Assembly (NCBI GenBank): GCA_024137785.1
Contig: JAHRHZ010000283.1
Span: 16,283,451 to 16,347,450 of the forward strand
Source: Ginglymostoma cirratum
Lineage: Eukaryota
Direction of reading: 5' to 3'
Length of the DNA: 64,000 bases
Below, in pieces: positions 8,280-64,000 of this stretch; the first letter of the stretch is position 1; each line of letters begins with the position of its first letter. The notes under the pieces are model-generated. The model ran no database searches. It was given only the letters and a program-made list of their open reading frames with translations, and was not told the origin of the DNA. Both the position numbers and the translations under genes were made by a program.

Positions 8280-9330
8280 CGGCAGCAACTTAAATTTATG
8301 TTGCACCGCTAATCAACAGAAAGTCCCAACACGTTTCAGAGGACCATTATAAACCAAATAATACACTGAACCACATAGGGAGATATCAGGTCAGCTGAAC
8401 AAAAGAGATTTTAGGGTGTGCGTGGCAGGGGCGGGGGAGTGGAGGAGAGATCTAGGAAGGGTATTATAATCCCTAGGACGTAGGCACCTGAAAGCACAGC
8501 TGCCAGTGTTGAGCTGTTAAAATCAGATGTTCAGTTAGCGAAGCATAAGTATCTGCAAAGGGGCTGTGGGATGGAGAGGTTGATGTAGATAGGGAAGGGC
8601 AAGGCCTTGGAGAATTTTGAAATTTGTGTGAGACTTTTAAAATTAAGACATTACTTGCCCAAAGCCAAAGTAGGACAGCTCGTGGACGGATGATAGGAGA
8701 ATGGGATTTACTGCAAGAAGGACATAGTCTGCAGAATTTTGGATGACCAAGTTTACAGAGAGCAAGATTTGGAAGACCAGTTAGGAACACATTGGAATTG
8801 TCAAGGCTAAAGCTAACAATGTTATGAGTGAAGGTTGCAGCAGCAGATGAGCTGAAATAGGAACATAGTGGAGCCCTGGATAACAAGGTGGGGGGCTGGA
8901 TGAACACAGCAGGCCAAGCAGCAGCATAGGAGCAGGAAAGTTTGACGTTTCGGGCCTAGACCCTTCATCAGAAATCGTGGACTGGCCTCTCCAGTCCTTC
9001 TTCAGGATAGTGGAGCCCTGTTATGTTGTTGGAAATAGGCAGTTTTGGTGATGGCTCAGAACCCCATCTCGGGGTCAGGTGTGACCCTGAGGTTGTGAGT
9101 AGACGAGCTTAATCTTGGGCTGTTGCCACGGAGAGGAATGGAGTCTGGAGAAGTTTGGAGCAAGGATGAAAAGACAATGGCTTCAGTCTTCCTGGTAATA
9201 ATTGGGAAAAATCTTTGCTCATCCAGTAATAGATGTTAGTAAGCTGTCTGATAATTTAGCTGCAGTGGTGCTGCTCAGGTAGCATTGGATATCCCCAAGG
9301 TGCATGTGAAAAGTAACACTGTCTTCCTAA
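8280..9330 (-). mobile_element. Decayed L2 LINE 3' fragment, interrupted by a younger insertion at 8879-9006
   Basis: ORF 8473-8907 contains SLDNSNVFLTGLP...SHSPI...LLWL, resembling the L2 motif SRLDYCNSLLAGLP...HITP.L..LHWLP. Confidence 0.65.
8879..9006 (-). mobile_element. Short non-autonomous element with hammerhead core (copy 1)
   Basis: 14-bp TSD atagtggagccctg (8865-8878 / 9007-9020); - strand 8944-8971 reads CTGATGA-A-GGG-TCTAGG-CCC-GAAAC-GTC. Confidence 0.85.
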
Positions 9331-9549
9331 TAGGTAATTTGCTGCCTATCGGGAAGTGTTAGATTATGATGACTATGCCCATAAGAACAAGCACTCACTG
9401 CTTTTACATATCCTCAGGTCGACTCAAAGCAGAAGGTGAACAGCTGTCATTTAGATTTGTTAGGGTGCATACTTTGTCAGCAAGGTGGAGCCCACCCCAG
9501 TGGGATTTCAGTTTATTGAAGATAGTAGTTTAATATGTTTAGCAGTCAT

Positions 9550-10250
9550 GTTATGTCTGTCCAGTCCATAGGCTCAACAAGCACAGGTCTTCATTATTTA
9601 GTATAGTGGTTGTTCTGATGGTCGGCATCTTATCACGCAGTGGGTCAGATTCCTGCCAGTCAGCCAGAAACTCTGGGTTCATGCCCTGCTTTGAGTTCAC
9701 GTTCCACTGCAGGACTTTATGATCACAGAAGGTGCTTTCATGCAGCATTGATTATCATCCTGGAAATCTTTCCAGTATGTCCAGGGCAAGGTGCAAGAGT
9801 CTCCTGGTCAGTTATGTTTGATGTGGCCTGGCACCAAGCTGTCGCTTCTGGCAGGCTAGTGACCTGTTGCAGGAAAAACTAGCTATGGAAACAGACATAA
9901 ATCCATTTGTCTTCCTTATCTGTCTCTAGACTCGCACATTTAAGTATCTTTATGGTCTTCCTTTTGTGTGGAATGGCTCACGAGCTTTCCCCAACAGTAA
10001 AATCTGAAATTTGTGGAGCTTTGTATGGAACAAGTGTACAGCATATAAACTTGATGCATTTTGCAGATTTGTGTTGGCTATCTGCCACCAAACCCTTGCT
10101 GTTGTTCCTCCTCCATTAACTGCAGGCCAATATCTTGTTTCCAGCTCTGTTAGATTTCCAATGTATTTGCAGTAGGAGTAAGGCAGGTTTCTGGAATTCA
10201 CTTCTGCCAAACATGCAAATTATTGGGTTCTGGAAGAAATGTTGAGTTTG
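9550..10250 (-). mobile_element. Highly decayed LINE remnant, possibly L1/Tx1 C-terminus
   Basis: Broken - strand translation PGHTGKISRMIINAA.KHLL.S loosely resembles the Tx1-type ORF2 C-terminus; stops and frameshifts; weak. Confidence 0.3.
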
Positions 10251-11654: not shown

Positions 11655-12731
11655 GGTTACAAAGGGACATTGATAGGATGCAGAGCTGGGCTGAGAAGTG
11701 GCAGATGGAGTTTAACCCTGAAAAGTGTGAGGTCATTCATTTTGGAAGGACAAACTTGAAAGCAGAATACAGGGTTAGCGGAAAGATTCTTGGCAGTGTG
11801 GAGGAGCAGAGGGATCTTGGGGTTCATGTACACAGTTCCCTGAAAGCTGCCACCCAGGTGGATAGAGTTGTTAAGAAGGCGTGTGGTGTGTTAGCTTTCA
11901 TTAATAGAGGGATCGAGTTCAAGAGCCGTGAAGTTACGCTCCAGCTATACAAAAGCCTGGTTCGGCCACATCTGGAGTATTGTGTCCAGTTCTGGTCGCC
12001 TTATTACAGGAAAGATGTGGAAGCATTGGAAAAGGTGCAGAGGAGATTTACCAGANNNNNNNNNNNNNNNNNNNNNNNNNNNNNNNNNNNNNNNNNNNNN
12101 NNNNNNNNNNNNNNNNNNNNNNNNNNNNNNNNNNNNNNNNNNNNNNNNNNNNNNNGTGTGGTGTGTTAGCTTTCATTAATAGAGGGATCGAGTTCAAGAG
12201 CCGTGAAGTTACGCTCCAGCTATACAAAAGCCTGGTTCGGCCACATCTGGAGTATTGTGTCCAGTTCTGGTCGCCTTATTACAGGAAAGATGTGGAAGCA
12301 TTGGAAAAGGTGCAGAGGAGATTTACCAGGATGTGGCCTGGAATGGAAGGGAGGCCTTATGAGGAAAGGTTGAGAGAGCCAGGGCTTTTCTCTTTAGAAC
12401 GACGAAGGATGAGAGGTGACTTGATAGAGGTGTACAAAATGATCAGAGGTATAGATAGAGTGGAGGTAGCTATTACGAGGGGGCATAGTTTTGAAGTGAG
12501 TGGAGGTAGATATAGGGGGGACGTCAGAGATGGGTTCTTTACTCAGAGAGTGGTCGGGGTGTGGAATGCATTGCCGGAGAGGGTAGTAGAGTCGGCCTCC
12601 TTAGGGGCATTTTAAGTGGCTATTAGGCATATGGATAATAGTATAAGGTAGAGGTGGAGATTAGATAGTGTTAGGGTAAAACGTTTGGCACAACATCGTG
12701 GGCCGAAGGGCTTGCACTGTTCTATGTTCTA
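11655..12731 (+). mobile_element. Young CR1 LINE, 5'-truncated RT/3' end (spans an assembly gap)
   Basis: WAEKWQMEFNPEKCEVIHFG...LYKSLVRPHLEYCVQFWSPYYRKDVEALEKVQRRFTRM...LFSLERRRMRGDLIEVYKMI...FFTQRVVGVWNALP; ends in a ttctatgttcta tail. Confidence 0.95.
12056..12155. other. Assembly gap (100 N) with 174-bp identical overlap on both sides
   Basis: 11881-12054 is identical to 12156-12329, indicating an unmerged contig overlap. Confidence 0.95.
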
Positions 12732-16699: not shown

Positions 16700-19600
16700 T
16701 GCTAGTAAAAATGCACTGAGAACAGGGTGTCATTTGTGGCAGCTGAAGACATACTAGGGTAAGATGTCAAGCACAGCATATTTCTTCTGGATTGTGTAGA
16801 AGGTTTTGTTCAGAGAATTTGTGCTGAATGGTTTCTTCCACAATAGCTCATTAGCTTTGGAGCTTTGGATCTGTTAGATTAACTTTGGTGCTGATGCTGT
16901 TTTGCTCTGGACCTCGGATGAGGACTAAGATGACCAGCAGTAATAGAAAGTAAAGCAGCTTACTCCTATCAGTCCTGCTGTTTCGTAGGATAAAGGCCAG
17001 AACTGTGTAGTTCACAGGTGGCAACACCCACAACACAGGGTATACAAACAAAGGATAAACTTCCATGACACCGGTGTGTAAAGGGGTCCAGAGTCTACTG
17101 CAGGGGGGAAAACAGCTCCAGCTGGCTTTGGTAGCATTTCTTTGCCAGTGGCAGTTAAAGTCACCATCAATGTCACTTTCTTTCCCTTTGGTTCCTTCTA
17201 GTGCTACAACTGAGACAACTGCAGGATCTTGGCCTAAAACTGCATAGGATAGGTGAATGATGACTGGGTTACCAAGGTGAGCAAGGTTTGCCACAGATTA
17301 AGAAAGAGTGGGCAGATTTTGGTTTGCAGCTCTGGCTGGTTTCCCACTACCCAGAAGGGGAAAAAACCCCCAGTAAAACTGGCGAATGACACGTTTGGTC
17401 CAACTCGCCTTGTATACATCAAAATGGAGCTTCTGTACAATTAGAGATATAAGGTACTGCAGATGCTGGAGAATCCGAGATAACAAGCATGGGGCTGATG
17501 AAGGGTTTAGGCCCGAAACGTCAAGTTTTCCTGCTCCTATGATGCTGCTTGACCTGCTGTGTTCATCCAGCCCCGTGCTTGTTATCTTCTGTACAATTAG
17601 TATGTTTGTTTGTTTTCAAGTATTTTTTGGTTCTTGCCTCTGGGAGGTGCAGGGTGTCATCAGACACAACTGTCTGGCAATTGATGCATCCCAAGATCAC
17701 TAAGGACTATTTTTCAGTTGAATGGCATCCACTCCATCAGTGAATAGTTGGCAAACACCATAAAAGGTTACTTATGCGATGGATGCAACATTCTTAGGCA
17801 CCTGCCATGCTTTTTTTTTCTCCTTCTGCTTGGTAGTCTGTCCATACCTCGAAGCAGCTGGCTGCTCTATGTCAAAGGATGCCTACCGATGCCCACAACA
17901 GTGAGTTCTAGGAGCAACGTGATCAAAATTATTCCGTAGGCTATCAACATGTTGGAGATGTGTTTCAAATGCCTGGACATATCTGGAGGTTTCCTTTTAA
18001 CAAGCAACACCTATGCTCTCCAGGATGTTTATTTGTGGTGGACTGATGCTATGCAACATTGCATAACAACAAGGTTTGAACTGACAAGAAGAAAAAGGCT
18101 CAAAGTGCAGGACCTCTTCAGGTGTTTTCCGAGGCAGTGTATCATGTGACCAAGGCACCTCCGTCCAGGTAAATTGTTGCCCAGGATGACATCATTGTGA
18201 GATTCACATGGGTTCTTCCAGTCCAACCATCTGGTAGCCACACTTGAGAATCGTCTCCTTTCCCCAACACGAAGGAATCCTATAAACTTACCAAGCATCT
18301 GAATTTTGCCCCCCCATCCCCACCCCCACCCCCATCCATTCCTTGGCACCAGTTCTTATCTTAATATTAATTCCAAGTGCAAAGGCCACTTCCCAAGGAG
18401 CAGGTAAAAAATGGCCAACGTTGGAAAGTGCTGGAAACAAATATTTTGCAGCCTGAAAAATTAAACAAAATGTTAACAGTCTGATATTGTATAACACATC
18501 CGTATGTATGCCCTTGTGCAACTACCTTCTCTTCCTTTTCCTTCATGATGCAACTTCTGTCCCTCAGCAGAGGTAGAATCAGGCTGCTGCGATATTGGTT
18601 AGCCCCCTTCTCCATTTTCAAGCCCAACAGAGTCTATTGGCTTTTGCAGGTTTTGTTTTTAAATTCATTCACAGGATGTGGGCACATTAGCCAGGTCAGT
18701 ATTTATTGCCCAACCCTCAATTGACATTCAACCACCTAGTAGCCTTGACCGTTGGAATGCAAGATAGCATCTGGTACTTCGACTGAGATGGTGCCAGCTG
18801 TTTTAAAAAGTGGAAAAGCTTTGAGCCAAGTCCCATGGCCCACAGGCACTTCTGTGCTGGCCATAAGCTAGAGAACATTTTGCTGCAGTGAGGTGATGAA
18901 TGGCCAAAATTAGGGTTTCATGCATATTATTTCAGTTGCATTTGTTGTGTGAAAGCTGTTGGTAAGGATCTGATTTGTGTGCATTTGATCACCCTGTCTG
19001 ATGTTTCATGTGGTCATATTTTTCTTTGGACAAATATGCCATCACATAGACATTCAATATCATACCACTTGTGCTTGAGAGAGAATCTACCAGTCTGCAT
19101 GCAAATGTCTGCAGTGCAGCTGGAAAGCCTTCCATGATTTTTCCCTTTCTGCTCCAGAAGTATCCTCTTGGTTTATGACTTCTAAAGTTCAGCATCTGCT
19201 TCCAGCTTGGCAGAGCTTGGAGCATCTTGCGATGTTTGAAGTGGACTTGCTACCACTGCCCACTTTCACTGTCTGCTCTTGCTCACTTGTGATAAGAGCC
19301 ACTAGGTCCCACTTGAATACAGGTACACAAACCCTTTTCAGTTATTGACCATTTGAGGAATTGTCGGCCTCCTTCAGATGTGTGCGAAGTTGAAGACATG
19401 CATGGGACTGCCAAATTAATAATAATTTAAATGTTCATCAGGCGTTGATCGTATTTTTCTTGCTACCAGCACCTAATCAACATGACCATGCTATATGCCC
19501 GATACTTAATTCGGCCACTAGACAACATGTTGTAACTCCACTGATGTCCAGGAGTGCTCCCTCTGATGCAGAGTGTTGGTTGACATTTACATTCTGGTCT
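16700..19600 (-). mobile_element. Highly decayed non-LTR retrotransposon sequence (L1/Tx1- or RTE-like; clade uncertain)
   Basis: Fragmentary RT-like words on the - strand (DDTLHL, RQFYWG...GKPAR, NVGHF) with many stops and frameshifts. Confidence 0.35.
17445..17585 (+). mobile_element. Short fold-back element with hammerhead core (copy 2)
   Basis: 15-bp TSD cttctgtacaattag (17430-17444 / 17586-17600); 20-bp inverted arms 17478-17497 / 17568-17587; CTGATGA-A-GGG-TTTAGG-CCC-GAAAC-GTC at 17495-17522. Confidence 0.85.
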
Positions 19601-21799: not shown

Positions 21800-22590
21800 G
21801 AGAGAGACACAGGCGAAATTGGAGCAGGCCATTTGGCCCCACGGCTCTTTTTTGCTATTCAATAAAATCATTGCTGATAGTGTCTTTTTTTTGTCAAATT
21901 CCACATGCTAGTCTACTCCTACAATGTTTGAATCTCCTGCCGAACAAGAATCAATCCATTGTCTGTCGTTAAAAATATTCAATGACCTCATCTACACTGA
22001 TAGAGAGTTCCAAAGTGTGTCAAACCTTTTGAGAGAAAATAAAATCTCAATCTCTATTCTGAAAGAGTGACTCCTAATTTTAAAACAATGCTTCCCTCGT
22101 TACGGACTTGCCCACAAGAGGAACCATCCAATCACTTATCAAGAATATTTCAATCAAGTTACCCTCATTCTTCTGCATTCCAGAGAAACAGGCCCGGGAT
22201 GTCCAACCTACATTAATAACACTGCCCACTCCGGGTATTGCTGCAGTAAAACACCCCTGAATCATCTCTGGTGCATGTACATCCAGACTTAAATGAAAAC
22301 TGCATACAGTATTCAAGTTGTAATCTCGCCAATTTCCTGTATAATGAAGCATGATGTCCTTACTTTTACATTCAATTCCTGTCCTAATAAAGGATAGCAT
22401 TCCATTAGTTGCCTTAATTAGTTGTGTACTCACACACTAATATTTTGCAACTCATGCACTATAACACCTTGATACTTCTACACCTTGGAATTCTGCAGTT
22501 CTTCTCAACCTAACTGATGCTCTGCTTTTTAATTCTTCTGACCAGAGTAAACAAATTCACATTTTGCCACATTATGCTCCGCTCGCTAGA
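21800..22590 (-). mobile_element. Old CR1 LINE 3' fragment
   Basis: ORF 22080-22433 (IKATNGMLSFIRTGIECKSKDIML) plus a CR1-type 3' UTR near 21810-21880. Confidence 0.8.
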
Positions 22591-42585: not shown

Positions 42586-42702
42586 AAGGGACACTACCCA
42601 CATTAGAGAGATAAATTTTGCTCAAACCTGAGACAAATTCCAGACTAGAAATCAAAACACAAGTGAACTTAAACAAATAAACTCAATATAGTAGAATCTT
42701 AC

Positions 42703-47190: not shown

Positions 47191-47249
47191 AAATGTTTTC
47201 CCATCACCCTTCGAAGAAGTGGTTACTGCTGGCATCCTCCTGAACTGCC

Positions 47250-48860
47250 TGACACGACTGAATGGCACATTCTAGACTTTCAGGAGGAAACTATTTCTCT
47301 CAAACTACCTTTATAAATCTTCTGATCATCTTAGTATCTCAATGAGAAATTATACCTTCATCTATATTTAAGGGAAATACAGGCTTAATCATGGCAGCCC
47401 AATCTCACTTTAATGTTTAGCTACAGCATTATCCCAATCCTTGCTGCACTGCCTACCCCTCAAGCTAATCGAGTTTAATATCTTTCTTGAGATGTGGTGC
47501 CCAGAGTGGATGGTACTTTCAGATTGCTCTGCACTGCTGCAACAACTTCTAATAATTTGTATTCTAGTCCCCTTGAGTTAAGAGCTAACATTTCATAAGC
47601 ATTTTTAATTCTTTGAGATTTCTGTACTTGGACCCCAAAATTTCTAAGCTTTCTGCAATTTAGAAAACATGATGAATTATCTTTATTTTTTGAAATGCCA
47701 AATTGGATGCTCTCTACAGTGCAGAAGGAAGCCAGTTGGCCCATCATGTCTAACACATGCTCTTCAAATGAGTCCCACGACTTAGTGTAAATCTCCTGCC
47801 TTTTCACCAGACCGTTGCACATTATTTCTATTTAAATAATAATTCAATGCCCTCTTGAATCACTCAACTGAATCTGCCTCCACCACAGTTTCACACTGTA
47901 CATTCCAGAAAAGATTTTCACACTTTTTATTGCACACAATTTTAAAACCACACCCTCTCATTTGTGATCCTTTTACAAGCAAGAACACCTTCTCCCTATC
48001 TACTTTATCCAGCCTTCTAAAAACCTTGAAGATTTCTATCAGATCTCCTCTTAGTCTTTGCCTCTCCAAAAACAGTCCTAACCTCAATCTATCCTCACAA
48101 CTTAAGTTTTGCATCCTTGGAACAATTCTTGTACGTCTCTTTTGCACTCTCCCCAATATATTCAATTCTTCCCATAATACAGCAACCAGAATTGGACATA
48201 AATTCCAGCTGAAGTCTTAGTAAGTTCTGCATAACCTCCTTACTTTTGTACTCTGCTCCTGATAACAAAACATTGGCTATGTTTGCTTCTTTGTCCAAAT
48301 CATTTATACAGTGAAAAGCCAAGCAATATCACAGATCTCTCAGCACTTAACCCCTCAAGGTCCCCTTGGAATTTTACATTATTCAAACAAGATCACTTCT
48401 CATTCTTCTAAACTACAGAGTGCTCAACCAGTTCTCAAGACAATCCCTAGGTCTCAGGAATCAGTGTAGTCAACATATGCTCAACTGCTTCTAGTGCAAT
48501 CATATCAGTGCAGAGTACTGGAGGTATGATCAGACCAATGCCCTGTACAGTTGTTCTAAGATTCCCTTCAAAGTATATTGCATTCCACCTACAACAAAAG
48601 CCTGTATTCCATGAGCCTTAATTGCTGACTACACAGTGTACTTTTACATGAGTCATAAGTTAGTTGACAAAGAGGTCTGCTGCAGTATTCTGTAGTTTCT
48701 CTCCATTTGCAGGTCACATCCGACCAATGTGACAAATCTCAAAATTTCCCCACATTATACCTTATCTGTCAATTTATTTGCCCACTCATTAACTCAGCTA
48801 CATCCCTTTGCAGTCTCCGTTTCATCCTCACAGCCTGTTTTCCTTTCTATCCTCTTCCAT
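47250..48860 (-). mobile_element. Nested CR1 fragments
   Basis: ORF 47860-48165 (RVQKRRTRIVPRMQNLSCEDRL.LGLF.ERQRLRGDLIEIFK) plus older CR1 remnants on either side. Confidence 0.85.
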
Positions 48861-50578
48861 CACACCCCTTGAATTTCAAGCATTTCTACCTCTGGGATAG
48901 CAATGAGAGAAGAAAGACCAGATGCTGACTTTCTACAAAAGTAAAATACTGGATAAGCTGGAAATTGGAAGTTAAAAAAGTGTTAAAATACTTTGCAGGG
49001 GGTAGCATGTCAGAGAGAAACAAACTTGACAAACATGACCTTTTGCGAATTCAACAGGCACTTCACTTTTAAACTTGACACTCAAGAGCCTTCTGGACTC
49101 AAGGTGGAGTGCAACAACTTCAGACCATAATCTCTTTAGACATCTTGTTTATTTTTGTGGTGTATTTTTCATTCTTTATTCCTTCACTTTGCATCTGGAT
49201 GATTACTGTGCAGCCATCTACACATTCTGCCGACACAGCTTTTGATCCTTACCCTGTCCTATTACCATAACTTTTATAGCTTTTGTTGCATGAAACATCG
49301 TCAATTGATCTTTCCTGCCCTCTACGATATTAGACCTACCCTTCAACTGTTCTTCCCCTCTTCAGTTGCTGAAACCCTATATACAAGTCCCTTCAAAAAG
49401 GAAAAATCACATTGGTGCTGTTGAAAATGCACAGGGCCTATTAAACCCCAATGAAACACCTTGGTTTATATTACTGAACTAAGACATTACAAAAATTTAG
49501 GTCAAGAGGGTGATACTTCTGTGAATGCATAAATGAATCCACAGTCTCAATTATATTCCATAGGCTGGCCTCAGTCCTTCAATTTTATCCCTTAGTATCT
49601 ACAGCTCCTATTTCAAAAGACTGAGTGAATGCTACTCGAAATATTTTGATACAACTTCAAATATCAAAATTCTTTCCAAGAAAGACCAAATGAGATAAAA
49701 GGAGATGGACTGAATCGTGACATGGAGCACTAAGATCAAGCTGCTTAAAAGAAATATACCACTAAACATTCACAGACAGATTCCATTTTGAGTATTATAC
49801 CTGACTGACGTCACTTGCTATTCAATGTCTCTTACCTTGACTTTACCCATTGATCCACAAAGTGGAGTTTCATTTGATAGACTGAGCTAGATATGCTTAT
49901 TACATCACCACCAACTCCACAAGAAAATGTTGTTTTCTGAATATACCAATGGCTGTAGTATTTTGGTTCCAATTCACATGAGAAACTTTACTCGCTTATT
50001 TGCTAAGGTTCGTAGCTCTTCATAACTTAAACCCCATTCATCCATACTTTCATCCCTATCAATTCGATCCCTTGAAATCAGGAGTTCTTTTGCAATGAAA
50101 ACTGATAACAATATAGCCCACTTCAGGGCAGGATAATAAATTAGTTCAAACAGGTTAAAGAACTTTGCTATTTCAGTAATCTGACAGATTATCAAACAAA
50201 GGTAACAATTTTTTAATAGATGGTACTCTACAAATGCTAGGTACCAAATCTTCTCTCTGGCATGTCAAAATTACAATGGTTCTCTCAAATTAATCAATCA
50301 CTGTAATGACATTCAAATTATTTAGCTACATGTATTTACTTTCAAAAGAAAGGTACTCATGACATGGAGCCCAAGAGTTAGTCACAATTACACGATCTGC
50401 CAGCAACATCAGCAATTTGTGATCGGCTATCATTACCGATGTTTTGTCTCCTTAGACCAACAATCTTAAAGAAACAGGTCATTGAGCAGCTAAATAATCA
50501 CAAAAATGCTTCAGACTCCAGCGAGCCATGAACAATGGTTGATCTGCTTGCATTGTTATAAACATTACAATAGTCTAA

Positions 50579-52009
50579 GGTTTTGGCAAAGATCCATAGC
50601 TTGGGTTGTGGGTGAGGTTGTTGACTTGCTCACCGAGCTGGCTTGTTCTCGTTTCAACATTTCGTCACTATGCTAGGTGACATCATCAGCGGAGCCTCTG
50701 ATGAAGCGATGTTATTCTACTCTGCTTGGAATTTATACTCCCCGTTATGGTGAGTAGTGTCTTTTCTGGTTTTGATCTATATGGGTTTGTATATGGGGTC
50801 CAATTCTACATGCATGTTGATAGCATTACGGGTGGAGAACCGTGCCTGTAGGAATTCCCGTGCATGTCTACATTTGGCTTAGGCTACTACCTTATGCCAG
50901 TTGAACTAATGGCCTTCATTTTCTGAGTGTACTGATATTAGGGAGAGTTCGTCATGTCGTTTTGCTGCTAGTTGATGTTCATGTATTCTGATGGCTAGTC
51001 TCTGATCCTGTGGATCCGGTACATAGATGACAGATTTGTCATTTTTAAACGCAACAACTTAGAAGAAACCCACCAGTTCATCAACAGCACATTCACAGGG
51101 ATTAAATTCACAAGGGAAGTAGAAAACAACAATCAACTTCTGTCTTTGGATGTTAAAGTTGAGCGTATGACCAACCGGGAGTTTCAAACCTCAATATACA
51201 GAAAAGCAACCCACACTGATCAAATCCTCAACTTCCACAGCAACCACCCAAATGTCCACAACAAAGCTGCATTAGGACACTATTTAAAATGGGCGAGGAC
51301 ACAAGACAACACTCCAGAACTGCGCAGGAAAGAGCAAGAGCATCTATACAAAATCCTCGCTCTGAACAGATATCCCTGCAACTTCATCCACAGCTGCCTA
51401 CAAAACAGACAGCAGGAGGGCACAGTATGCCCTAACACACTGCCCTATATCATAAACATATCGGAACTGACAACAAGACTCCTAAGGTCACTAGGAATCA
51501 TGGTAACCCACAAGCAGACAGCCACTCACAAGGATTACAGACCCCATTCCCACAACAGGCAGAACCAACATGGTTTACAAAATACCATGCAACAACTGCC
51601 ACAAACATTACATCGGACAGACAGGAAGGAAACTAGCCATCAGAATACATGAATATCAACTAGCAGCAAAACAGCATGACAAACTCTCCTTAATATCGGT
51701 ACACTCAGAAAATGAAGGCGACCAGTTTAACCGGCACAAGGTAACCATAGTAGCCTAAGCCAAACCCAGACATGCTCGGGAATTCCTACAGGCATGGTTC
51801 TCCACCTGTAATGCAATCAACATTTAGAATTGGACCCAATATACAAACCCAGAAATGACACTCACCATAACAGACTTGACAGTATAAATTCCAAGCAGAG
51901 TAGAATAACAACACTTCATCAGAGGCTCCACTGATGATGTCCCCCAGCATGGCGATGAAACGTCTGAACGAGAACAAGCCAGCTCAGCACGAAAGTCAAC
52001 AACCTCACG
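50579..52009 (+). mobile_element. Penelope-like retroelement (5'-truncated, inverted-pLTR configuration)
   Basis: RT remnant (RYIDD.F at ~51018; TSIYRKATHTDQILNFHSNHP) and GIY-YIG endonuclease (VYKIPCNNCHKHYIGQTGRKLAIRIHE); ~380-bp inverted repeats 50612-50999 / 51632-52008; 12/14 TSD ttacaatagtctaa / ttataacagtctaa; frameshifted. Confidence 0.92.
51931..51964 (+). ncRNA. Minimal hammerhead ribozyme motif in the Penelope pLTR (inverted copy at 50656-50689)
   Basis: CTGATGA-T-stem II-GAAAC-GTC; the inverted copy keeps a perfect GTCAC/GTGAC stem II but reads GAAATGTT. Confidence 0.7.
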
Positions 52010-53676
52010 TTATAACAGTCTAACATAACACAAATTACTTCTACGTCAAAAGAAAGTATGTGTAAGTATTCAGCTATCTGAAAGAATTGGAGGCCGTCAA
52101 CTCATTACTAACAAAGACAACTCTGGTATTAATTCAGGTGGGACTATTGGACAATAGAGGTGATGACAGAATAATTCATTGGGAAGCACTCATTCCTCCT
52201 TACCCAGTAAGATCTAGCCATTTTCACCTTCCTTGACCTGCACGTTTCCTAAAGCTCGGAAGTTGTGGCCAACAATAGAAACCTTGTAAAAATAATCCAA
52301 AGCTTCCTTAAAAAGATAACAACTGACCTCATAAGAGTAGCTTGATCACCTACACTCACCCATATTGGTTAAAACCTAACATTGATGAGTTCAAGCCCTG
52401 ATTCAGACTTTTAGCTTTTTAAGCCACACAAGAACCATCCCCATATTCTGGGGCTAAAATTACACCCCCTTCTTCGTTAAAAAGCTCACCATCTGTCAAC
52501 AGTAGGTCTCTTCTTTGCTAAAGGTTTGAAACATTAACAAATGCAAGGTATTCTACAATAAAGCATGCAAGAAAAGGCTCAAACGTTTGTTGCTTGTACA
52601 GAAAGCTTAACATATTTCTGAATTGAAATGCTGGGAATTTTGCTTAGCTATTATTTGTTACTCAATAATTACATCTGGTGCCTAAATAACCTGCAAATAC
52701 ACCTCCGATGAATTCCTGTATGAGAAAGCAATTACATGACCTGACCAAAAAAAAAATCACTCCAGACTGTACGAAGATTAAATAAATGTAAAGAATTAAC
52801 ATATGATATACTTATTACACATATTTCCAGTCCACTTTAATACTTGAAAGTAGTTTGAGATTTGTCTTGCTCATTTCACGTAGTTTAAAAAATACGCAGG
52901 ATAAGAAATGGATATTTGCCTCATGCCTTCACCCTATCCCAACGCTGTTTTCTTTAACACTGAAGTTAACCAGCTCTTTTGATCACGTTTAACTTCGACA
53001 ATCCGCGATGAAAGTTAGATGGAGTTCACAAAAAGTTTCAAGCAAACGCCTTGCTAAGATTCCATGCAGAAGATTCCCGGTTTCAATCTTCAACAAAGCC
53101 CATGGACGTGTGTGTGGATCAAGGCAGAGTTGGATAACTTTCAGATAAATGGGAAATTAAAAAGAAGAAGTTTACAATAGCTCACCCACTACAGACTACG
53201 GAACACCTGAGAACTCAAAGCCTGATTGACAAATACAGAGGAGGTACATGATGTACTTTGCCACCCTTGACACAATTATCTGTCTTAACAACCTGAAAGT
53301 AAAATTACTATTGTTCTGCATTTAAATCAGCCATAAGACAGATACCAGTTTCAGAGATTTTACAAAAATAACAATTATTTTAAGCACTTAAGTGACAGAT
53401 GTAAGCATGGTAATATATTCTTATGTAGTACCACAAATGTATACACTGAAGCAATTCCTAAGGAAATGGTTAAAGAATTGGAGCAACAGTTAGAAAAAAA
53501 AGCATAGAAAACCGAATGGACAATTTTCTCTCAAATTTGCGGCACATCAATTCAAAATAAAAACTTCAAACATTTCCCAACTGTGTTTTCCACATGCATC
53601 TAACAAAAGTTTTACTAAATGTCAAAATACAAACAAAATTTAGTAAAAAGCTGTGGAACTTAACAAGAACACCAAC

Positions 53677-53784
53677 CTTTTCACCCTGGAGTGATGGTAC
53701 AGAGTCACGTAAACTATGAAAGCTGTCTTTGATGTGATCCCTGCGTTTGCGCTCCAATGCGTTGTGGTGTGCTCTTTTATCTGC
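53677..53784 (-). CDS. MAX: MAX exon 3, 108 nt (basic region and helix 1)
   Basis: ttttcag acceptor, gttggt donor; [36 protein letters not shown]. Confidence 0.99.
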
Positions 53785-56486
53785 CTGAAAAATAATATGA
53801 CAGCATCAGTTAGCTTGAAGTACTTTGCATAAAAGAATAAACACATGCTCATAGGTTAACATGTTATTGATATTTAATAGTGCTGAAACTGCAAGTTACT
53901 ATGGACAAATCAGTTAAAGAAAATCATTTTTGAATCAGAAGTTAATAGTCCATGAACACCAAAGCCTTCAGATTCTCTCTACCCAGCCTGCACCTACTGC
54001 TAGCCTACCAAGCCCCTCCTCCACTGTGTCAACCAGAGTCCCAAATTCCAAATAGCTAAAGTTAAAGAAATATTTTAACACAGATAATGACTCACTTTAT
54101 TTGTTTACAGCATTTACACAGCACAGGTTTTGAATATTAAATAGTTTAGCTTTTGGATACATCTGCCATGGGTTCCCATCCCTGTTGCCTTCAAGATGAA
54201 AATAAAGGACCTTTCGGCACGGCTGTAGTGACACTGTGAAAATATTCCTTCCTTTACACAGGGAGGCCTATGGTCAACTCCTACCTGGTCCAAAGGTGTG
54301 TAACGACAACCCTGAACAGGGGTGTTTATATTAAAATACCTTTAAATACAATATCCAATATCACGCCTAACTGAAGGATGCTTCCTTCTAAGTTAAAAAC
54401 TTAGTTGATTTCAAACTTTATTAAATTTAAAAGTTCATTCACTAAGGAACTTTAACTTAATATTTCATGCTTTAATTTTTCATTTAAAAATGGGGGAGGA
54501 AAAAAAGTTGCCTGACCGCTCCAGAATCAAGATCACTGAAGTTTCCAACAATTTACATTCTTAACATTTTCTGATTTTTTAAACTGTAGATTATATGAAC
54601 AGCAGTCAACTCCAAAAACGTCACTGAAGGTTGCATATTTAAAGCCTAACGACCCTTTAAAACAAGATCAATATTTAAATATTAAACAGTAGTTGTGCTA
54701 AATGCAATTCTTATGCATCAGATCTCTTTTGTAATGAACCAGTAGCAGATATTATAACAGCAGTAAACATTTAAAGATGCCTTTCTCCTCACTGTATTTC
54801 AAACTAAATATTTTTAAAACATTTCTATTAGTCAAAAAAGGCCAAGTAAAAGAATAAATTACCATACTGGTTGTGTAACCATAAGATTCACATACCAATG
54901 GCAATCAAATCACATGTCACTCCAACGGAACACCTAACATTTAGAAGGCATTTATCAATTCGAAACATGAGAAGGCTATATTTTGCTAACAAAGACAATG
55001 ACAAATAATAATAATGAAGCTAAGCAATATTACAAAGTAAATGAAAAATGTGTTGACAAGATGAAGCACTGCACAGGAAAAGGCACAAGCTTTTAAAATA
55101 CGCACTCAAACACTCAAAGTCAGTGCAAATATCAAAAGCTTATCCTTTCCTGGGGCAACATCACCTGCAATTTATTTCTTGCCAATTTTAACTTTCAGTT
55201 TGGTTAATAGTGGTATGGGAAGTCATTAATAAATAAGAGCTTTATATGCAAGAAATGTGCTTAGCACACAAGTCATGTACACACACCATTTAGGAAAAAT
55301 GACTGCAGATAACCAAGTACGAGTCTGACTTCACATTCCTTCTTTCAAACTCCTGAATTTGCCTCACCAAATCAGATAATTAGTGAAAAGGACATATACC
55401 GCATTCCACAAGATAAAAAAGTGGCAATCATTTTGAAGCAGCTTTGCACATCTGCTAGTAACGTCAGCTCTAACATTATCAAGTGAGGCACACTGAATAA
55501 CACCTCAAAAATACTGCATAAACGTTGAAGCAAATTCTATACAAAAAATTTCCATAGTTTAATTTCTTACCAAACTATCATATTACACAGGAAGTTAAAG
55601 CTCTGAGCAAACAGGTAACTATTGCCATGTATTAGCCTGACCAGTTAGGAGTAGTGCAATTGTCAGAGAAAGCACTGGCAAACCAAATACTCTTTTTTTT
55701 TGCAAATTTCGGGCAACATTCAATGCCTGCAGATTTCTTGCTGAAATAACAGATAATTATCTGGCTTGCAAACAAAACAGTGTTGCAACTGAAACTCTCA
55801 CGAACTGAAAAACTTGTTAACTGCATTTTTCTGATAGATTTTGTTCAAAGTATTGGAACTTAATAAACAGTTAGGAATTTACCCAATAAACACACCTGGG
55901 ATTTACATTAAAAAAAGCAATTTTTCTCAATTTCAAATGCAAAACAAAGTGAGGAGCAGCTGCAATTTATTTACAGTCCACTGCAAGTACTAAACCCAAC
56001 TGGTGCAACAGCAACACAAAGACATTAGATTTAGTGCCCCTGCAGTGCTTCCCTCCAAAACCTGCACAGCTAGGAAACCAACAAGCATAAAAACAAATTG
56101 CTGAACACATATAGTCCCCAGTAATCATTCTATTCTCAGTAATATCATTCATAACACCTGTAAGGCTCATTCTCATTATCTTCCACAGGTCAAGAACTAC
56201 GTGCCTATTTTTTCTTTACTGAATGTTGGTTTCATATAAGAAGGTAACTCAATTGTGGTCAACGTAATAATTGGTAATATTTGTGTCATCATTCTGTTAA
56301 AAAGTCTCACCTCAACACTAAATGTTGGAGGTCAGTCAAATAGGTCACAGATTCCTCCACAACTTTCAGGGCCATTGTTGCTCTGTGCTTACTTCACAGG
56401 AGACATAAATAAAAGAATCTAAGTGTCACCTATTGAGGCAATACATTCTAGATGCCTAATAATGGATAATAAATAAATAAATAAAG

Positions 56487-56675
56487 ATAGTAGGAACTAC
56501 AGATGCTGCAGAATCTGAGATAACAAGGTGTAGAGCTGGATGAACACAGCAGGCCAAGCAGCATCAGAGGAGCAGGAAGGCTGACGTTAAGGGTCTAGGC
56601 CCGAAATATCAGCCTTCCTGCTCCTCTGATGCTGCTTGACCTGCTGTGTTCATCCAGCTCTACACCTTGTTATCT
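56487..56675. mobile_element. Fold-back element with 67-bp inverted arms (copy 4)
   Basis: 56518-56584 pairs with 56609-56675 with one mismatch; 24-nt loop holds a damaged hammerhead core; one-sided tail at ~56487-56517. Confidence 0.9.
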
Positions 56676-58029
56676 ATAATAAATAAACAAATGTCTGGGC
56701 CTGAGGATCTGAATATCAACTAAATATTAGGGTTTCAGCCCACCAGTGGAGTATTTGGTATCCTGACTGCTCATCATAAAGGCAGTACAGCTGACCTATG
56801 TGAATGTGATATAGATTATGATACACATCACAAAAAAAGTAAAATTTCTCACAGGATCCTAAACTTATTCTTTCAATTTATTTTTAATATTTAAATACGG
56901 CACATAAACTGGGATCATCATGTTTATAACTAAATGTTCAGTTAGCTTTTTAAAGGCATCTTTCTACCTGATCAAAGATTACACACACACTTCCTGGAGT
57001 CCATTTTGTGTTAGGCATACCACCAAAAAAAACCGTACAAGTATCTTAACTATTTACATTTTGTTATTGATACGTGGAGAGAGGGAAAAAAAGTTTCTCG
57101 AAAACGACGAATAACAATTGCTTTTAGCAGCCGATCGTCCGAAGCCGCTGTATCAAACACGTTTACACATCTACAAAAGAGGAAGGGAGGGAGAAAAACA
57201 GCGTCACGACGAATTTGTTAACTGCTTCCATTAGTGCAGGTTTCCGATGGGTCGGACACACTTTCACGCGAAAAGCGAAGGTTGGGTGAATCAGGGGGAA
57301 AGAAGAGGTATAAAAACATACTGGAACAAAAAAACTGCCAGCGATTTCGAGCGAATCTATTTGTTTGGCTTCAGTACAAGAGTGGAATGGATGTAAATGG
57401 GACGCGCTGAGGCTTGTGGGCAAAATGAATTGTTTTTAAAAACATTGCACTGGGAAAGGGGAGGGAATGAAAATCTCCAAAAGTGAAACGAAGATAGAAA
57501 ATCGGCAAGCAAGAGATGAAGGAGAAGAATTCCTAAAACAGCGTGGGTTAAGGAACTACATTAAGGGGTATTTTGCACGATAGGCTACTGGGCCTTTCGT
57601 AATGTCTCTAACCTAGACACTATCTATCACTCAAACTCTAAATGCCTTGAGCTGGCCATTTGACCAGACTCAGGCTACGGGCGGGAATTGATTTTTTTTA
57701 AAAGATACAGACATCAGGGGTAAGTTAAGTTTCGGGACATCTTACTTTAAAATAAAGGTTGCAATAATATTCTGAATAGATAATCCAAATAAAAGAGGGA
57801 GGCTACTGGGACAGCAGCTTGAAGCCACATCCCCAGCAATTATCAGGTTAAAAATAATAATCCAGGCTTTTAAGAGTAATTTGATCTGTTTTTTTTCTTA
57901 CACGAAGTAAATTACGTTTAGGGGATGGTAAAATAAGTTTAAAGATTATTTAAGTATATAGATAAGTTTTATTTTTAAAGAAAAATCAAGGCGACGAGAC
58001 GGGGTCTATGTTAATCCTCCGTTACGTAC

Positions 58030-58056
58030 CGCTGTCTGAAACCTCGGCTGTTCTTC
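58030..58056 (-). CDS. MAX: MAX exon 2, 27-nt microexon
   Basis: ttttcag acceptor, gtacgt donor; EEQPRFQTA, equivalent to the 9-aa p22/p21 alternative exon. Confidence 0.95.
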
Positions 58057-58324
58057 CTGAAAAACAGACAAGTGCACAAAATGATCACACAGCCGGAGAG
58101 TTGGCGCTTTACAAAAAAAAAATCGACAGAGAGAGAGAGAAAGGAGGGGAAATCCGTAACTACAGAGAAAAGGGGGAAAAATTATTTTTTTTCACAATCA
58201 GGTGGAAACAACTCCCAACACGTTAAAAACATTTTATTATTTTCGAAACACAAACGAAACTGAAAAATCAAGCAAAATTTCGAAACAAAAATAACAATAA
58301 TAGAAGGCACCAGGCGAGACTTAC

Positions 58325-58360
58325 GTCGCTTTCGACCTCGATGTCATCGTTATCGCTCAT
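58325..58360 (-). CDS. MAX: MAX exon 1 coding part, 36 nt
   Basis: ATG at 58360; MSDNDDIEVESD then gtaagt donor. The five exons total 483 nt = 160 aa plus stop. Confidence 0.98.
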
Positions 58361-58519
58361 GCTTTTTTTAATTAAAAAAATGCCCAAAAAAAAACCAACG
58401 CAGGGATCGCAAAAACGAAAATTAAACTTTCACAGGAATAGTAAATTAATGTCGGGAGGTACACAAAACAAAAACAAAAACAAAACACACAACTGTGAGG
58501 GGAGAAACCAACAGCAAAA

Positions 58520-58900
58520 TCACTCGTGACTCCGGCAGCAGCTCCGCCCGACAGGCCACGGCCCCCCACATCAACCTCGCCCCCACTGCGCATGGGCGGC
58601 TGGGCAGGCTCCGCTGGGGAATGTAGTACCTTCCACCATTGGCCTCCACTATCCGCGCTGGACGCCTGGACTACCTTTCCCATAATCCCCGGCCTCCCCA
58701 CAGACGGAGTTCCACCCAGTCAGCGAAATGGAAGAGATGGCCGGAAGTTCTTCCAGGAGCCGGAAGTCGCATGTCCCCCCCCAACTGTGTGCGTGGTGCC
58801 CGACGGGAATTGTAGTTCCCCCCTGCACCGCCCTGTTTCCCGGCCTATACTTCCCGAGAGTCATAGCGGCCGAAAGGAGGAGGGCAACATGGCAGTGGGG
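58520..58900 (-). promoter_or_regulatory. MAX: CpG-rich TATA-less MAX promoter
   Basis: Sharp GC/CpG rise; ZNF143/THAP11-type ACTACANNTCCC motifs (58611-58627, 58670-58688, 58805-58816); ETS CCGGAAGT twice (58741-58748, 58760-58767); CCAAT on - (58638-58642); GC boxes; NRF1-like TGCGCATG (58587). Confidence 0.85.
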
Positions 58901-59164
58901 AAGGTAGATAGAGAGAGCAGGATGTTTGACTTGACAACAGGCAAAACAATTCTCTTAGGACTCGGAGTGACGATGAAAGCACCCACACAAAGCGATATTG
59001 CGTGGATGTCCAAATTTCTTTACATCTACAACTTTATTTCACAAACAACAATTCTTATGAGACGATATTAGAACAGGGGTAGGAGATCTAATATCTAAAG
59101 TTGACAGGTTATCTCGTTGAGTCACGACGTTACCAGCTCTTTAATGACCAACTCCCTCACTTCA

Positions 59165-59301
59165 GCGATAGTAGGAACTGCCGATGCTGGAGAATCTGAG
59201 ATAACAAGGTGTCGAGCTGGATGAACACAGGAGGCCAAGTAGCATCAGAGGAGCAGGAAAGCTGACGTTTCGGGTCTAGACCCTTCTTCAGAAATCACAA
59301 A
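59165..59301 (-). mobile_element. Hammerhead-core element (copy 5)
   Basis: 12-bp flanking duplication tccctcacttca (59153-59164 / 59302-59313); - strand 59264-59291 reads CTGAAGA-A-GGGTCTAGACCC-GAAAC-GTC. Confidence 0.85.
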
Positions 59302-59378
59302 TCCCTCACTTCAAGTCCTTTTCGAATCGCTCAAACATGCCACAGGTTGTCCTAGAAATAAGGGACAGAATATATCCA

Positions 59379-59469
59379 GCATGGGGCTGGATAAACACAG
59401 CAGGTCAAGCTGTCATCCAGCCCCATGCTTGTTATCTCGGATTCTCCAGCATCTGCAGTACCTTTTATC
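59379..59469. mobile_element. Internally deleted fold-back element (copy 6)
   Basis: 14-bp TSD acagaatatatcca (59365-59378 / 59470-59483); arms agcatggggctggat / atccagccccatgct; family tail present; no hammerhead core. Confidence 0.85.
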
Positions 59470-59539
59470 ACAGAATATATCCATTTCGTTCTGCTTCCTC
59501 AAGGCTTTGAGACTTGCTGCGTGATGTAGCTTGATGTAG

Positions 59540-60692: not shown

Positions 60693-62099
60693 TGAAGAGT
60701 GAAAGACCAGCTATAGCACACCTAATTTAATCTCTTTTCATGAAAAATACACCAGCAAGCAAATACTTTGCTGCTCTTACTGATTAACTTTTCAAGAACG
60801 TCCAATTTGTTACTTACATTAAAGAGTTTGTTTTCTTAGTTTATTGTGTACGGTGCATTGGCTCGGTGTTTGATCTTATTGTCAGAAGTCCTACTCTATG
60901 TGGACCATACAAAGAAATCTCAGCTGCACAATAGCTGTTGAATCTCTTGACTTCAAAATGCAAAAGCAACTTGATATTTAGAAAGTTTGAATACACAATG
61001 GTTCAAAATAAACACTAGCTTACTGTATAACATACTGAAAATGACGTGTTCTACTTGGCAATAGTGGAACAAGAAGCATAATTAATCTATGAATGTCAGA
61101 ACTGGCCAAAAGCTATTGATGTAATAGGCTTTAAGCAAGTAAAGACAGGGAAAGGGAAGGATAGAACCAAAGGGTAAATTTTGTGATTGTGTTGAATGGA
61201 AGGAGTGCCCTAAATTATAATAGGGATAATAGGTGCAGGACAAATGAACAGGTCAAGAAGAAAAAGATAGTTCACAGAGATACGACATGCTGAGCATTGC
61301 CATTACACTCCAAGTGAGGTGATCTGTTGTTTGTGGAGGCTAGTTGGATTGAAGGTGAGGACAAGGTTCTGGGAGGGAGTTAAAAATCAAAGAAATGTCA
61401 GAAATGATGAAGAGCCTTGTCAGCCCATATTTAGCATTCAAAAGGTACGGTTCTCCAATGTAAACCTGGTCCACTCTTCCATCATCCTCAGGAACACTTG
61501 TGTTCCTTTTCCGTGTCACCATCCTGCATAGGGAGAGGAAATGAAACACTTACGCCTCGTCCCTTCTGCCTGAGTTTCCGATCACTTGGCATTTGAATTC
61601 TCTGTCCTTATACTCTGATCCGGTAAAGTTCTCCAAAGTTATGTGGAACAGCACTTCATCTTCAATTTAACATTTTAGAACATTTTGCACTTGTTACAAA
61701 CAACTGAAAATTGAGGAAAACATTGAATTGGGTTGAAAATCTACAATAAAACTGGACTATTGAATTTCTTTTGAAAGTAGTTTTTTTTAACCTGTAATTC
61801 AAATGTCTAAAGGTAAGTGGTTGGAACAAAATAGAGGTCATACACTTTACAATAACACCACTTATCTGCTTTTCCTTGAATTATCTACCTTTATTTTCTC
61901 AAAAGCATGCATTGGAATTTAATTCTGATGAAAGCCTGTAGACCTGAAATGTTAACTATTGTTCTTTTTTCCTCAGATACTGCCAGACATCCTATTTAGT
62001 TCCTGCATTATTCTTATTTTGGATTGAATATTATTGCAAACCTATAGCTGTTATCTGAATGTAGATCTTGCAGTTTTAAACGTGTGCTTTTGGTGGAAT

Positions 62100-64000
62100 C
62101 GTAAGAAAAAGGAGCAGGAGTGTGCCATTCACCACCGAGCTTGCTTCGTAATTCTGTGAGATTGTGGCTGTTGCCTTATCTCCTCGTTCCTGCCTTCTTC
62201 TCCATAATCCTCGACACCCTTGTGGATCAGAAATCTGCCTAACTCAGCTTTGAATGCATTCAATGACCTAGATGCCATTGCTCAAAGGAGGAAATTTCTC
62301 CATATCTAAGTCATAAATTATGACTTGTTTATGAACTCTCATTTCTAAACTCTGTCCTTTAGTTCTTGGGTGGAACATCCTCTCAGCATCTACCATCTCA
62401 AGCTCCCCTCAGAATTTTATGAGATAACAAGGTGTAGAGCTGGACGAACACAGCGGCCAAGCAGCATCAGAGGAGCAGGAAAGCTGACGTTTCGGGNNNN
62501 NNNNNNNNNNNNNNNNNNNNNNNNNNNNNNNNNNNNNNNNNNNNNNNNNNNNNNNNNNNNNNNNNNNNNNNNNNNNNNNNNNNNNNNNNNNNNNNNNNNN
62601 NNNNNNNNNNNNNNNNNNNNNNNNNNNNNNNNNNNNNNNNNNNNNNNNNNNNNNNNNNNNNNNNNNNNNNNNNNNNNNNNNNNNNNNNNNNNNNNNNNNN
62701 NNNNNNNNNNNNNNNNNNNNNNNNNNNNNNNNNNNNNNNNNNNNNNNNNNNNNNNNNNNNNNNNNNNNNNNNNNNNNNNNNNNNNNNNNNNNNNNNNNNN
62801 NNNNNNNNNNNNNNNNNNNNNNNNNNNNNNNNNNNNNNNNNNNNNNNNNNNNNNNNNNNNNNNNNNNNNNNNNNNNNNNNNNNNNNNNNNNNNNNNTGGC
62901 CTGCTGTGTTCGTCCAGCTGTACACCTTGTTATCTCAGATTCTTCAGCATCGGCAGTTCCTTCTATCCCTCAGAATTTTATGTTTCGTTAAGATCACCTC
63001 TCATTTTCTAAACTCTAATGAATAAAGGGCCAATTTGCTTGACCTTATAAGACAATCCCTCAGTCCTAGGAATCAGTATAGTCAATATCCTTTCAACTGC
63101 CTCTGGTTCAAATATGGTCTCACCAGTGCCCCGCATAGTTGTAGTAAGGCACCTTTGTACATTGTATCCACTTAGCAATAAAAGCCAACATTCCATTTGC
63201 CTTTGTTGTTTAGTGTATTGGATGCAAACATATGATTCATGAAAAAGGATACCAATATCGTTACTGCAGTGTTTTGTAGTTTCTCTCCATTTGTAGGTAA
63301 TTTCTATCCAAAGTGACTGCTCTCAAGTTTCCCCACAATATACTTCATCTGTCAATGTTTCCCCACTCGTGTAACTCATTCATATTCCTTTGCCTTTTTT
63401 CATCTTCACAACCAGCTTTCCTATTTGCCTTTCGCTTATCTGCAAACTTTGCTGCAGTTCAGTCCATTCCTTCATCCAAATCGTTAATAGATCGCAGGTA
63501 GTTGAGACCCCAGTACTGATCACTGTGTTACTTCTGTAGTTAGTTTGCAATGTTGGATATGTCCCATTTATCACAACTTTCTCTTCCTTGTTGTTTAGCC
63601 AGTCATCTATCCATGTTAATACATCATCCCCAACCTCTGAGATATTATCTTGTGTAGTAACCTTTAATGTTGAAACTTATTGAATGCTTTTTGGAAATCC
63701 AAAGACAAAACATCTGCTGGTAACTCTATTCACCTTGTTTGTTACATCCTCAAAGAACTCTAATAGATTTGTCAAATGTCATTTCCCTTTCACAGTACCA
63801 GATTGCCGTGCCTGTTTTTCAAAATGTTGTGCAGCTACTTCGCCTATTTTAGCATTTTCTCAGTTACATGATAAGTTAGCTGCTCTCTTGCTCTATGATT
63901 TCTGTTTCTCTGCTTTCTTGAATAAGGGTATTACATTTTGCATTTTTCAATCCACTGTATCAGTAGTACTTGGCCACCTCCAATGCTGAGTTGTTTCTTC
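62100..64000 (-). mobile_element. Old CR1 fragments, interrupted by element copy 7
   Basis: CR1 3' UTR near 62105-62170; RGDLNET.KI, ANGMLAFI, FADKRK and DVF.FGFPKSIQ.V remnants. Confidence 0.75.
62422..62966. mobile_element. Longest fold-back element (copy 7); interior hidden by a 400-N gap (62497-62896)
   Basis: 16-bp TSD ccctcagaattttatg (62406-62421 / 62967-62982); inverted arms on both sides of the gap; one-sided tail. Confidence 0.85.

Follow-up and report, generated by a model that had tools for sequence, protein, structure and literature searches.

Inverted, 5′-truncated copies and a tail of 30–40 bp at one end are standard features of Penelope-like elements (PLEs) (PMC8557442; PMC3846280; PMC8969392), and the way in which these inverted structures and tails form has been called undefined (PMC8557442). 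Remnants of the pseudo-long terminal repeats (pLTRs) of PLEs with minimal hammerhead ribozymes number ~4,000 in coelacanth and ~9,000 in Xenopus (PMC4209133). We used computational sequence analysis to follow up a family of short, non-coding repeats with a minimal hammerhead core in 64 kb of DNA of the shark Ginglymostoma cirratum (contig JAHRHZ010000283.1, positions 16,283,451 to 16,347,450; hereafter, the window). Our reading, to which we assign a probability of roughly 0.65, is that these short elements are the 3′-terminal pLTR of an endonuclease-positive (EN+) PLE, which probably belongs to the Neptune clade, and that they were inserted as solo or inverted-pair copies lacking the open reading frame (ORF). 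Since vertebrate genomes hold thousands of such remnants, the short family is ordinary as a family; the kind of element, the ribozyme and the insertion signature are already in print. We found no paper on this shark family in a literature coverage without most subscription journals and Repbase Reports, shark terms do not occur in the two searchable supplements of PMC4209133, and passages searched in PMC6765202, PMC3088659, PMC12602865, PMC4350176, and 10.1101/2025.06.08.657570 do not mention the family either; it may well be catalogued already.

The shark repeats resemble the pLTRs of EN+ PLEs (Penelope/Poseidon and Neptune; Craig et al., 2021, PMC8557442; Arkhipova et al., 2013, PMC3846280) in their 5′ truncation, in the head-to-head inverted copy, in the tail at one end, in target site duplications (TSDs) of variable length (8–10 bp in Adineta), in the occurrence of solo pLTRs and in the position of the hammerhead inside the repeat. 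On the other hand, the pLTRs in the Adineta examples border on an ORF or on captured DNA, and TSDs are missing from several of the solo pLTRs described there, whereas the shark window is dominated by ORF-less copies of 91–190 bp that have intact TSDs and 5′ ends clustered at the edge of the ribozyme. The shark copies also find a parallel in the in vitro behavior of PAc, the Poseidon element of Anolis (Frangieh et al., 2024, PMC11167929), for which two internal start sites of reverse transcription define the tail, both target strands are cut and extended, and uncleaved RNA is the main template. PAc prefers AT-rich targets, whereas the five TSDs found in the shark window share no evident target consensus; furthermore, the ORF of PAc starts at helix II, whereas in the short shark family we recognized no start of an ORF. 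Finally, the non-LTR retrozymes (Cervera and de la Pena, 2020, PMC7229834; Li et al., 2026, preprint 10.64898/2026.07.22.740005) are likewise ORF-less, related to PLEs and equipped with a type I hammerhead; however, they consist of tandem units with mostly canonical ribozymes and circular RNA (PMC7229834), whereas the shark copies are solo or inverted and bear PLE tails.

Anatomy of the short insertions

The original prediction had listed at least seven closely similar non-coding elements of 90–550 bp, and all seven are present where it had placed them (copies c1 to c7 in Table 1, in which the short-repeat insertions are numbered along the window and arms are read in the hammerhead-sense direction). 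Splitting these elements into arms gave 11 alignable pieces, and a profile hidden Markov model (HMM) built from them recovered all 11 arms in the whole window at E-values of 1e-7 to 1e-43, while the best match in the reversed window, used as a control, reached only 1.6. Beyond the listed elements, the window contains an eighth, degenerate arm (c8) as well as several older cousins. Identity is mostly 84–97% between arms with long overlaps and 72–82% for short overlaps between subfamilies, of which the window holds at least three. The proposed size range stands for its lower part, as all fully sequenced copies are 91–190 bp long; its upper end is not real, since positions 62497–62896 are a run of N and 62422–62966 is thus not a 545-bp element. 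Coding sequence was found in none of the eight insertions. As for the claim that the arm often occurs as an inverted pair, this is the case in four of the seven copies (c2, c4, c6, and c7), the other three (c1, c3, and c5) being single arms.

The unit of the short family comprises ~5 common nucleotides corresponding to the 5′ strand of helix I, the hammerhead core with a 4-bp helix II, GAAAC-GUC, a body of 65 nt and an optional tail of 32–34 nt; homology between copies ends ~5 nt upstream of the core. The 3′ ends of the arms fall at just two positions, 32–34 nt apart, with the exception of the left arm of c6, which is ~9 nt short. Their 5′ ends vary between −35 and +73 with respect to the core. 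The tail was found in five of the seven copies, as had been predicted, and at one end only. In all four inverted pairs the 3′ ends point outward and exactly one arm carries the tail. Five of the seven copies are flanked by exact TSDs of variable length (14, 15, 12, 14, and 16 bp), again in agreement with the prediction; a match of 12 bp was reached by only 1 of 2961 random pseudo-elements. Copy c3 is without a TSD, while a 10-bp TSD-like match within a TAAA run is all that c4 shows.

The inverted pairs are informative as to how they were copied. In c2, c4, and c6, each arm has sequence that is missing from its partner, which indicates that both arms were copied from an external template and not from each other; because of this reciprocal unique sequence, a snap-back origin, with one arm copied off its partner, was rejected for these three copies. 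Both arms belong to the same subfamily in all four pairs, and the pairs of c4 and c7 each carry a variant present in no other arm of the window; a single-template origin of the paired arms is suggested by this, although not by their overall distance, which is no lower than that to other arms of the same subfamily. The arms of one insertion differ at 1/19, 3/71, 1/16, and 2/39 positions. In the three pairs that can be resolved (c2, c4, and c6), the more truncated arm is always the one with the tail, with offsets of 73, 16, and 16 nt, respectively; this asymmetry, like the 5′ boundary of the copies, rests on three or four cases. The two arms meet at a 3-nt microhomology in c2 and bluntly in c4, while the junction of c6 is ambiguous in position by ~2 nt.

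One single arm, c1, continues upstream into ~28 nt that are not shared with the other copies and look like the half of a second hammerhead (CUGAAGA, A, and a 7-bp hairpin, without GAAA). This sequence has no further occurrence in the window and none among the protein matches described below. It may stem from a template switch or be true upstream sequence.

A minimal hammerhead core

The pattern CTGA-N-GA-N8-25-GAAACGTC has five matches in the window and none in 100 shuffles. Four of them are the intact cores that had been predicted in the short family, and the fifth is located in a separate coding PLE (Table 1). The core boxes, helix II, and the palindromic ACGU in place of helix III are all present. 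The shark motifs resemble the minimal hammerheads that metazoan PLEs carry (Cervera and de la Pena, 2014, PMC4209133) in the core boxes, the extra base between positions 9 and 10.1, the G10.1-C11.1 pair, the palindromic 15.2–16.2 and the lack of helix III; in both cases the motifs are mostly single and dispersed, with some pairs on opposite strands. We failed to detect a match to any hammerhead family of Rfam with either the whole window (E ≤ 5) or an 81-nt excerpt (E ≤ 10), and the best Rfam matches were sub-threshold microRNA hairpins produced by the fold-back of c4. Given that Rfam returned no hammerhead score, it is the motif itself and the literature description of minimal hammerheads that support the identification as a minimal type I hammerhead with a palindromic ACGU.

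Helix II is paired at all 20 cells in the five sequences, with no pair changed on both sides and two changed on one side. Helix I consists of 2–3 contiguous pairs in c1, c3, and c5, fewer than 4–5 bp, and of none in c2, where its 5′ strand is replaced by the inverted arm. The shark helices (4 bp for helix II and 2–3 bp for helix I) are therefore shorter than those of Schistosoma (7–8 and 4–5 bp, respectively; PMC4209133), while the minimal hammerhead of D. virilis also has a helix I of 2 bp (PMC4209133). The predicted fold-back of c2 pairs with the core as well, and c4 folds as one long hairpin of ~−150 kcal/mol.

Minimal PLE hammerheads have been reported not to cleave as monomers and to cleave weakly as dimers (PMC4209133), and cleavage was not seen for 8 of the 9 Xenopus dimers assayed (preprint 10.64898/2026.07.22.740005). 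Furthermore, the hammerhead of the Anolis PLE depended on the PLE protein, and insertion in vitro did not require this ribozyme (PMC11167929). We infer that the cleavage activity of the short-family copies is low; the hammerhead would be a passenger of the pLTR, and cleavage of monomers is unlikely in these copies.

Origin of the copies

The anatomy of the insertions suggests how they could have been made. A PLE protein with reverse transcriptase (RT) and GIY-YIG domains would cut the two target strands 12–16 bp apart, which would give rise to the TSD. Reverse transcription would be primed inside the RNA at either of two sites 32–34 nt apart, yielding ends with or without the tail. Where both target strands prime, two short cDNAs would be joined head to head, by microhomology or bluntly, and would leave a fold-back with the tail on one arm only. 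The template would be RNA that had not been cleaved, since the cleavage junction is preserved in the copies, and the two internal RT start sites and the extension of both strands observed in vitro (PMC11167929) account for the two 3′ ends and for the pairs. The link to PLEs that had been proposed for the family, with mobilization by a PLE RT/GIY-YIG protein, is thus supported by an insertion signature matching that of PLEs.

Relatives of the repeat were sought by comparing its conceptual translations in two sense frames with proteins. The matches (30 + 4 by frame) correspond to 31 EukProt gene models and three Stegostoma tigrinum proteins; therefore, the repeat occurs widely, at the least among the genomes of carpet sharks, and has entered gene predictions as a contaminant. 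The three Stegostoma proteins (P0022, P0027, and P0032, namely a zinc finger HIT 3 isoform, an HMGI-C isoform, and an uncharacterized locus) include translated pieces of the repeat and may be mis-predictions or exonized copies. In 8 of the 34 models, a sense arm comes immediately after an antisense arm (counted by eye; a looser count of 15 had included weak matches, which were left out). The arms meet within two codons of the 5′ edge of the core in six of these eight, a count biased toward short junctions, as only junctions with an open reading frame can appear in a gene model.

Four of the 34 models (P0001, P0010, P0017, and P0033) contain one YIDD RT segment in the antisense register, with z-scores of 13–29 as compared to ≤4.5 in the other 30. 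The order in P0017 is antisense RT, sense RT, and sense pLTR, as in a long inverted insertion, while P0033 shows an inverted pLTR, a pLTR plus tail, and the RT on the other strand, which is the canonical 5′ end of a PLE. The RT segment of P0017 shares 54% identity over 85 aa with a protein of the stingray Hypanus sabinus (P0185), the sole longer match among 11 candidates. This protein has an RT end, a CX4CxxC linker, and a GIY-CxxC-YIG motif, and a CX2-5CxxC linker together with GIY-CxxC-YIG is the signature of Neptune/Nematis (PMC8557442). As these four models link the repeat to a PLE RT, the copies in the window may be pLTR-only products of a coding element.

Several observations weigh against an origin from a coding PLE. 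The link to the RT comes from spliced gene predictions and not from contiguous DNA, and the gene models also join unrelated repeats, 3 of the 34 matching CR1-like pieces of the window. A Neptune-type coding remnant is not present in the window, where the stingray protein gave no tblastn match at E < 1. Likewise, neither of the two frames retrieved a long RT protein that starts with the pLTR peptide, a result that is weak evidence as the third sense frame was not searched. None of the nine arms whose 5′ end is known exceeds 137 nt, and of the four that extend beyond the core, three end no more than 10 nt from it; such a clustering at the ribozyme edge is not obviously predicted by random truncation of a 3-kb RNA. 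Finally, the distance between the arms of a pair is overall not lower than that to other arms of the same subfamily.

Some of these observations could be explained by a dedicated ORF-less retroposon of ~135 nt, extending from the 5′ edge of the hammerhead to the tail, with master copies of its own and a PLE protein acting in trans. Such a PLE-dependent short interspersed nuclear element (SINE) would insert by the mechanism outlined above, the template alone being different, and we regard it as a possible, though considerably less probable, source of the copies. Eight insertions in 64 kb without any coding sequence speak for it, as do the abrupt end of homology just upstream of the core, the meeting of the arms at the core edge in most of the inverted-pair gene models, the existence of three or more subfamilies, and the precedent of non-autonomous pLTR-forming elements known for Chlamys PLEs (PMC8557442). 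On the other hand, the PLE RT adjoins the repeat in 4 of the 34 gene models in orders compatible with one element, the junction count carries the open-frame bias, and run-off at the start of a full-length transcript gives an identical boundary. In Drosophila, transcription of the PLE begins within the upstream pLTR (PMC2377424). The clustering of 5′ ends could therefore result from internal priming in the 5′ pLTR with subsequent run-off, or else from a short master.

A more detailed and tentative proposal is that the copies record the making of PLE tails and inverted pLTRs. A dimeric protein would prime from both target strands, using two start sites on one uncleaved RNA; the tail-primed RT would trail, so that the tail arm would always be the more truncated one. 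Priming in the 5′ pLTR, or on an ORF-less RNA of ~135 nt, would run off at the 5′ edge of the ribozyme and yield a SINE-like product of fixed length. We consider this chain of events doubtful as a whole; if true, a shark genome rich in short, TSD-flanked copies would make the mechanism testable by sequence statistics alone. The copies are short and numerous and keep both ends and the TSDs, and are thus a good dataset on how PLE inverted structures and tails form.

Far less probable is the distinct, retrozyme-like family favored in the original prediction. In this case, tandem units would give hammerhead-processed circular RNA to be reverse-transcribed, and the copies would be dispersed monomers. 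The type I hammerhead, the lack of an ORF, and the long TSDs are consistent with such an origin (TSDs of >4 bp are noted in PMC7229834), and the preprint 10.64898/2026.07.22.740005 describes retrozyme families in one cartilaginous fish and retrozymes derived from pLTRs. However, head-to-tail tandem copies are absent from the 64-kb window, and none of the arms begins where the hammerhead would cleave. Nor does tail sequence precede the ribozyme in any of them, as would be expected of copies made from a small circle; moreover, the ribozyme is of the minimal and not of the canonical type, with no helix III and a very short helix I. Inverted pairs, a one-sided tail of 30–40 bp, and long TSDs are instead the ordinary signature of PLE insertion (PMC8557442; PMC3846280; PMC11167929). 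The recent activity also attributed to the family holds only in a relative sense, as the paired arms already differ and the family is found in Stegostoma gene models too.

A miniature inverted-repeat transposable element (MITE) or fold-back DNA transposon, with the arms as its terminal inverted repeats, would fit the four inverted pairs and the long hairpin of c4, but it is largely refuted by the single arms c1 and c5 with TSDs of their own, by TSDs of 12 to 16 bp in place of a fixed short one, by ends made asymmetric by the tail and by a variable inner junction, and is hardly credible. Equally implausible is a SINE dependent on a long interspersed nuclear element (LINE), with inverted forms generated by L1-type twin priming: variable TSDs and 5′ truncation fit target-primed reverse transcription of the LINE type and CR1-like fragments occur in the window, but both arms have the same 3′ terminus whereas twin priming yields non-overlapping pieces, the elements end in neither poly(A) nor a simple repeat, and five query copies gave no blastn match to the CR1-like fragments of the window. 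The short repeats should be annotated as PLE and not as MITE, microRNA hairpin, or unknown repeat.

Older elements and genomic context

The window also contains a separate and older coding PLE insertion, composed, like the short inverted pairs, of an inverted, tail-bearing left arm and a tail-less right arm (Table 1) that are 81% identical over 402 bp. Its RT end was assigned to the HTH_animal clusters of the Atlas at 0.96, and its best relatives carry RVT_1, one of them also GIY-YIG. The GIY-YIG match of the insertion itself is weak (E 0.069), and the translation of its tail region resembles the N-terminus of a PLE ORF (tblastn E 0.002). The 832-aa relative P0040 has no Neptune linker, and the insertion is therefore considered to be of the Poseidon type. 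As in the pairs of the short family, the tail arm is the more truncated one; a decayed TSD of ~15 bp is possible, although not exact. This element was rejected as the partner of the short family: it has only core words of ≤13 nt in common with the arms, and the best of 150 protein relatives matched the arms at E 0.027 only.

Four older cousins of the short family were recognized, two of which are inverted pairs. Three of the four were added to a second HMM, so that their E-values there are circular; however, the self-complementarity of the two pairs exceeds that of all of up to 300 random intervals. Judging from these older cousins, the pLTR lineage has inserted over a long period.

Table 1. 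Short-family insertions (c1 to c8), hammerhead cores, and other PLE-related features of the 64-kb window.
Feature	Position	Strand	Description
c1, single pLTR arm	8879–9006	−	no tail; intact core
c1, TSD	8865–8878/9007–9020		14 bp
c1, unshared 5′ part	8979–9006	−	~28 nt, like second hammerhead half
c2, left arm	17445–17497	−	tail-bearing; 5′-truncated at +73 from core; left TSD 17430–17444
c2, right arm	17495–17586	+	tail-less; intact core; 5′ strand of helix I replaced by inverted arm
c2, right TSD	17586–17600		15 bp; first base common to element end
c8	42052–42108	+	degenerate arm of third subfamily; HMM E 1e-11; no core, no TSD
c3, single arm	42486–42585	+	no tail; intact core; no TSD
c4, left arm	56486–56588	−	tail-bearing; truncated inside GAAAC (+22)
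c4, right arm	56589–56675	+	tail-less; starts at +6; lacks CUGANG; GAAAC mutated
c5, single arm	59165–59301	−	most complete single arm: 5′ strand of helix I, core, 65-nt body, 32–34 nt tail
c5, TSD	59153–59164/59302–59313		12 bp
c6, left arm	59379–59410	−	tail-less; ~9 nt of 3′ end also missing; 5′ end +52; left TSD 59365–59378; hammerhead absent from copy
c6, right arm	59413–59469	+	tail-bearing; 5′ end ~+68; right TSD 59470–59483 (14 bp)
c7, left arm	62422–62496	−	tail-less; enters assembly gap within helix II; left TSD 62406–62421
c7, assembly gap	62497–62896		400 N
c7, right arm	62897–62967	+	tail-bearing; right TSD 62967–62982 (16 bp), first base common to tail end
Intact cores of the short family	8971–8944; 17495–17522; 42493–42520; 59291–59264	−; +; +; −	c1; c2; c3; c5
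Fifth core match	51931–51964	+	in separate coding PLE
Poseidon-type PLE	50579–52008	+	separate, older insertion; two arms
Poseidon-type PLE, left arm	about 50579–51011	−	tail-bearing, short
Poseidon-type PLE, right arm	about 51003–52008		long, tail-less; RT end, GIY-YIG remnant, hammerhead
Older cousin pLTR	61923–62026	+	degenerate hammerhead core; E 0.007
Older cousin	28195–28319		inverted pair
Older cousin	33146–33272		inverted pair
Older cousin	46397–46482

The window is eukaryotic and contains four minus-strand exons of one gene near 58360, 53780, 42820, and 39270 (span about 39245–58360), which we take to be a MAX-like bHLH-zipper gene. Copies c4, c3, and c8 lie in its introns, c3 being antisense to the gene. 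The two intact cores located in these introns (at 42493 and 51931) are both antisense, in numbers too few to have a meaning. Copies c5 and c6, which belong to different subfamilies, are only 77 bp apart and lie (59165–59469) just outside a CpG island at 58501–59000.

Searches of plasmid and phage collections gave no match to the repeat. Bacterial and archaeal 18-mer seed matches were found at 25 loci, as compared to ~17 by a rough chance estimate, and none extends past the seed (best 14.8 bits), so that they were put down to chance. Six of the 25 (L008, L012, L015, L016, L018, and L019) are in one Verrucomicrobiales genome and probably belong to an unrelated bacterial repeat. At 11881–12329 of the window, an exact duplication of 174 nt flanks a gap of 100 N in a CR1-like fragment and is probably an assembly artifact. 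Finally, two further repeat families are each represented by two copies, at 48437–48844 and 63049–63422 (67% identical) and at 22449–22580 and 26659–26788 (77%).

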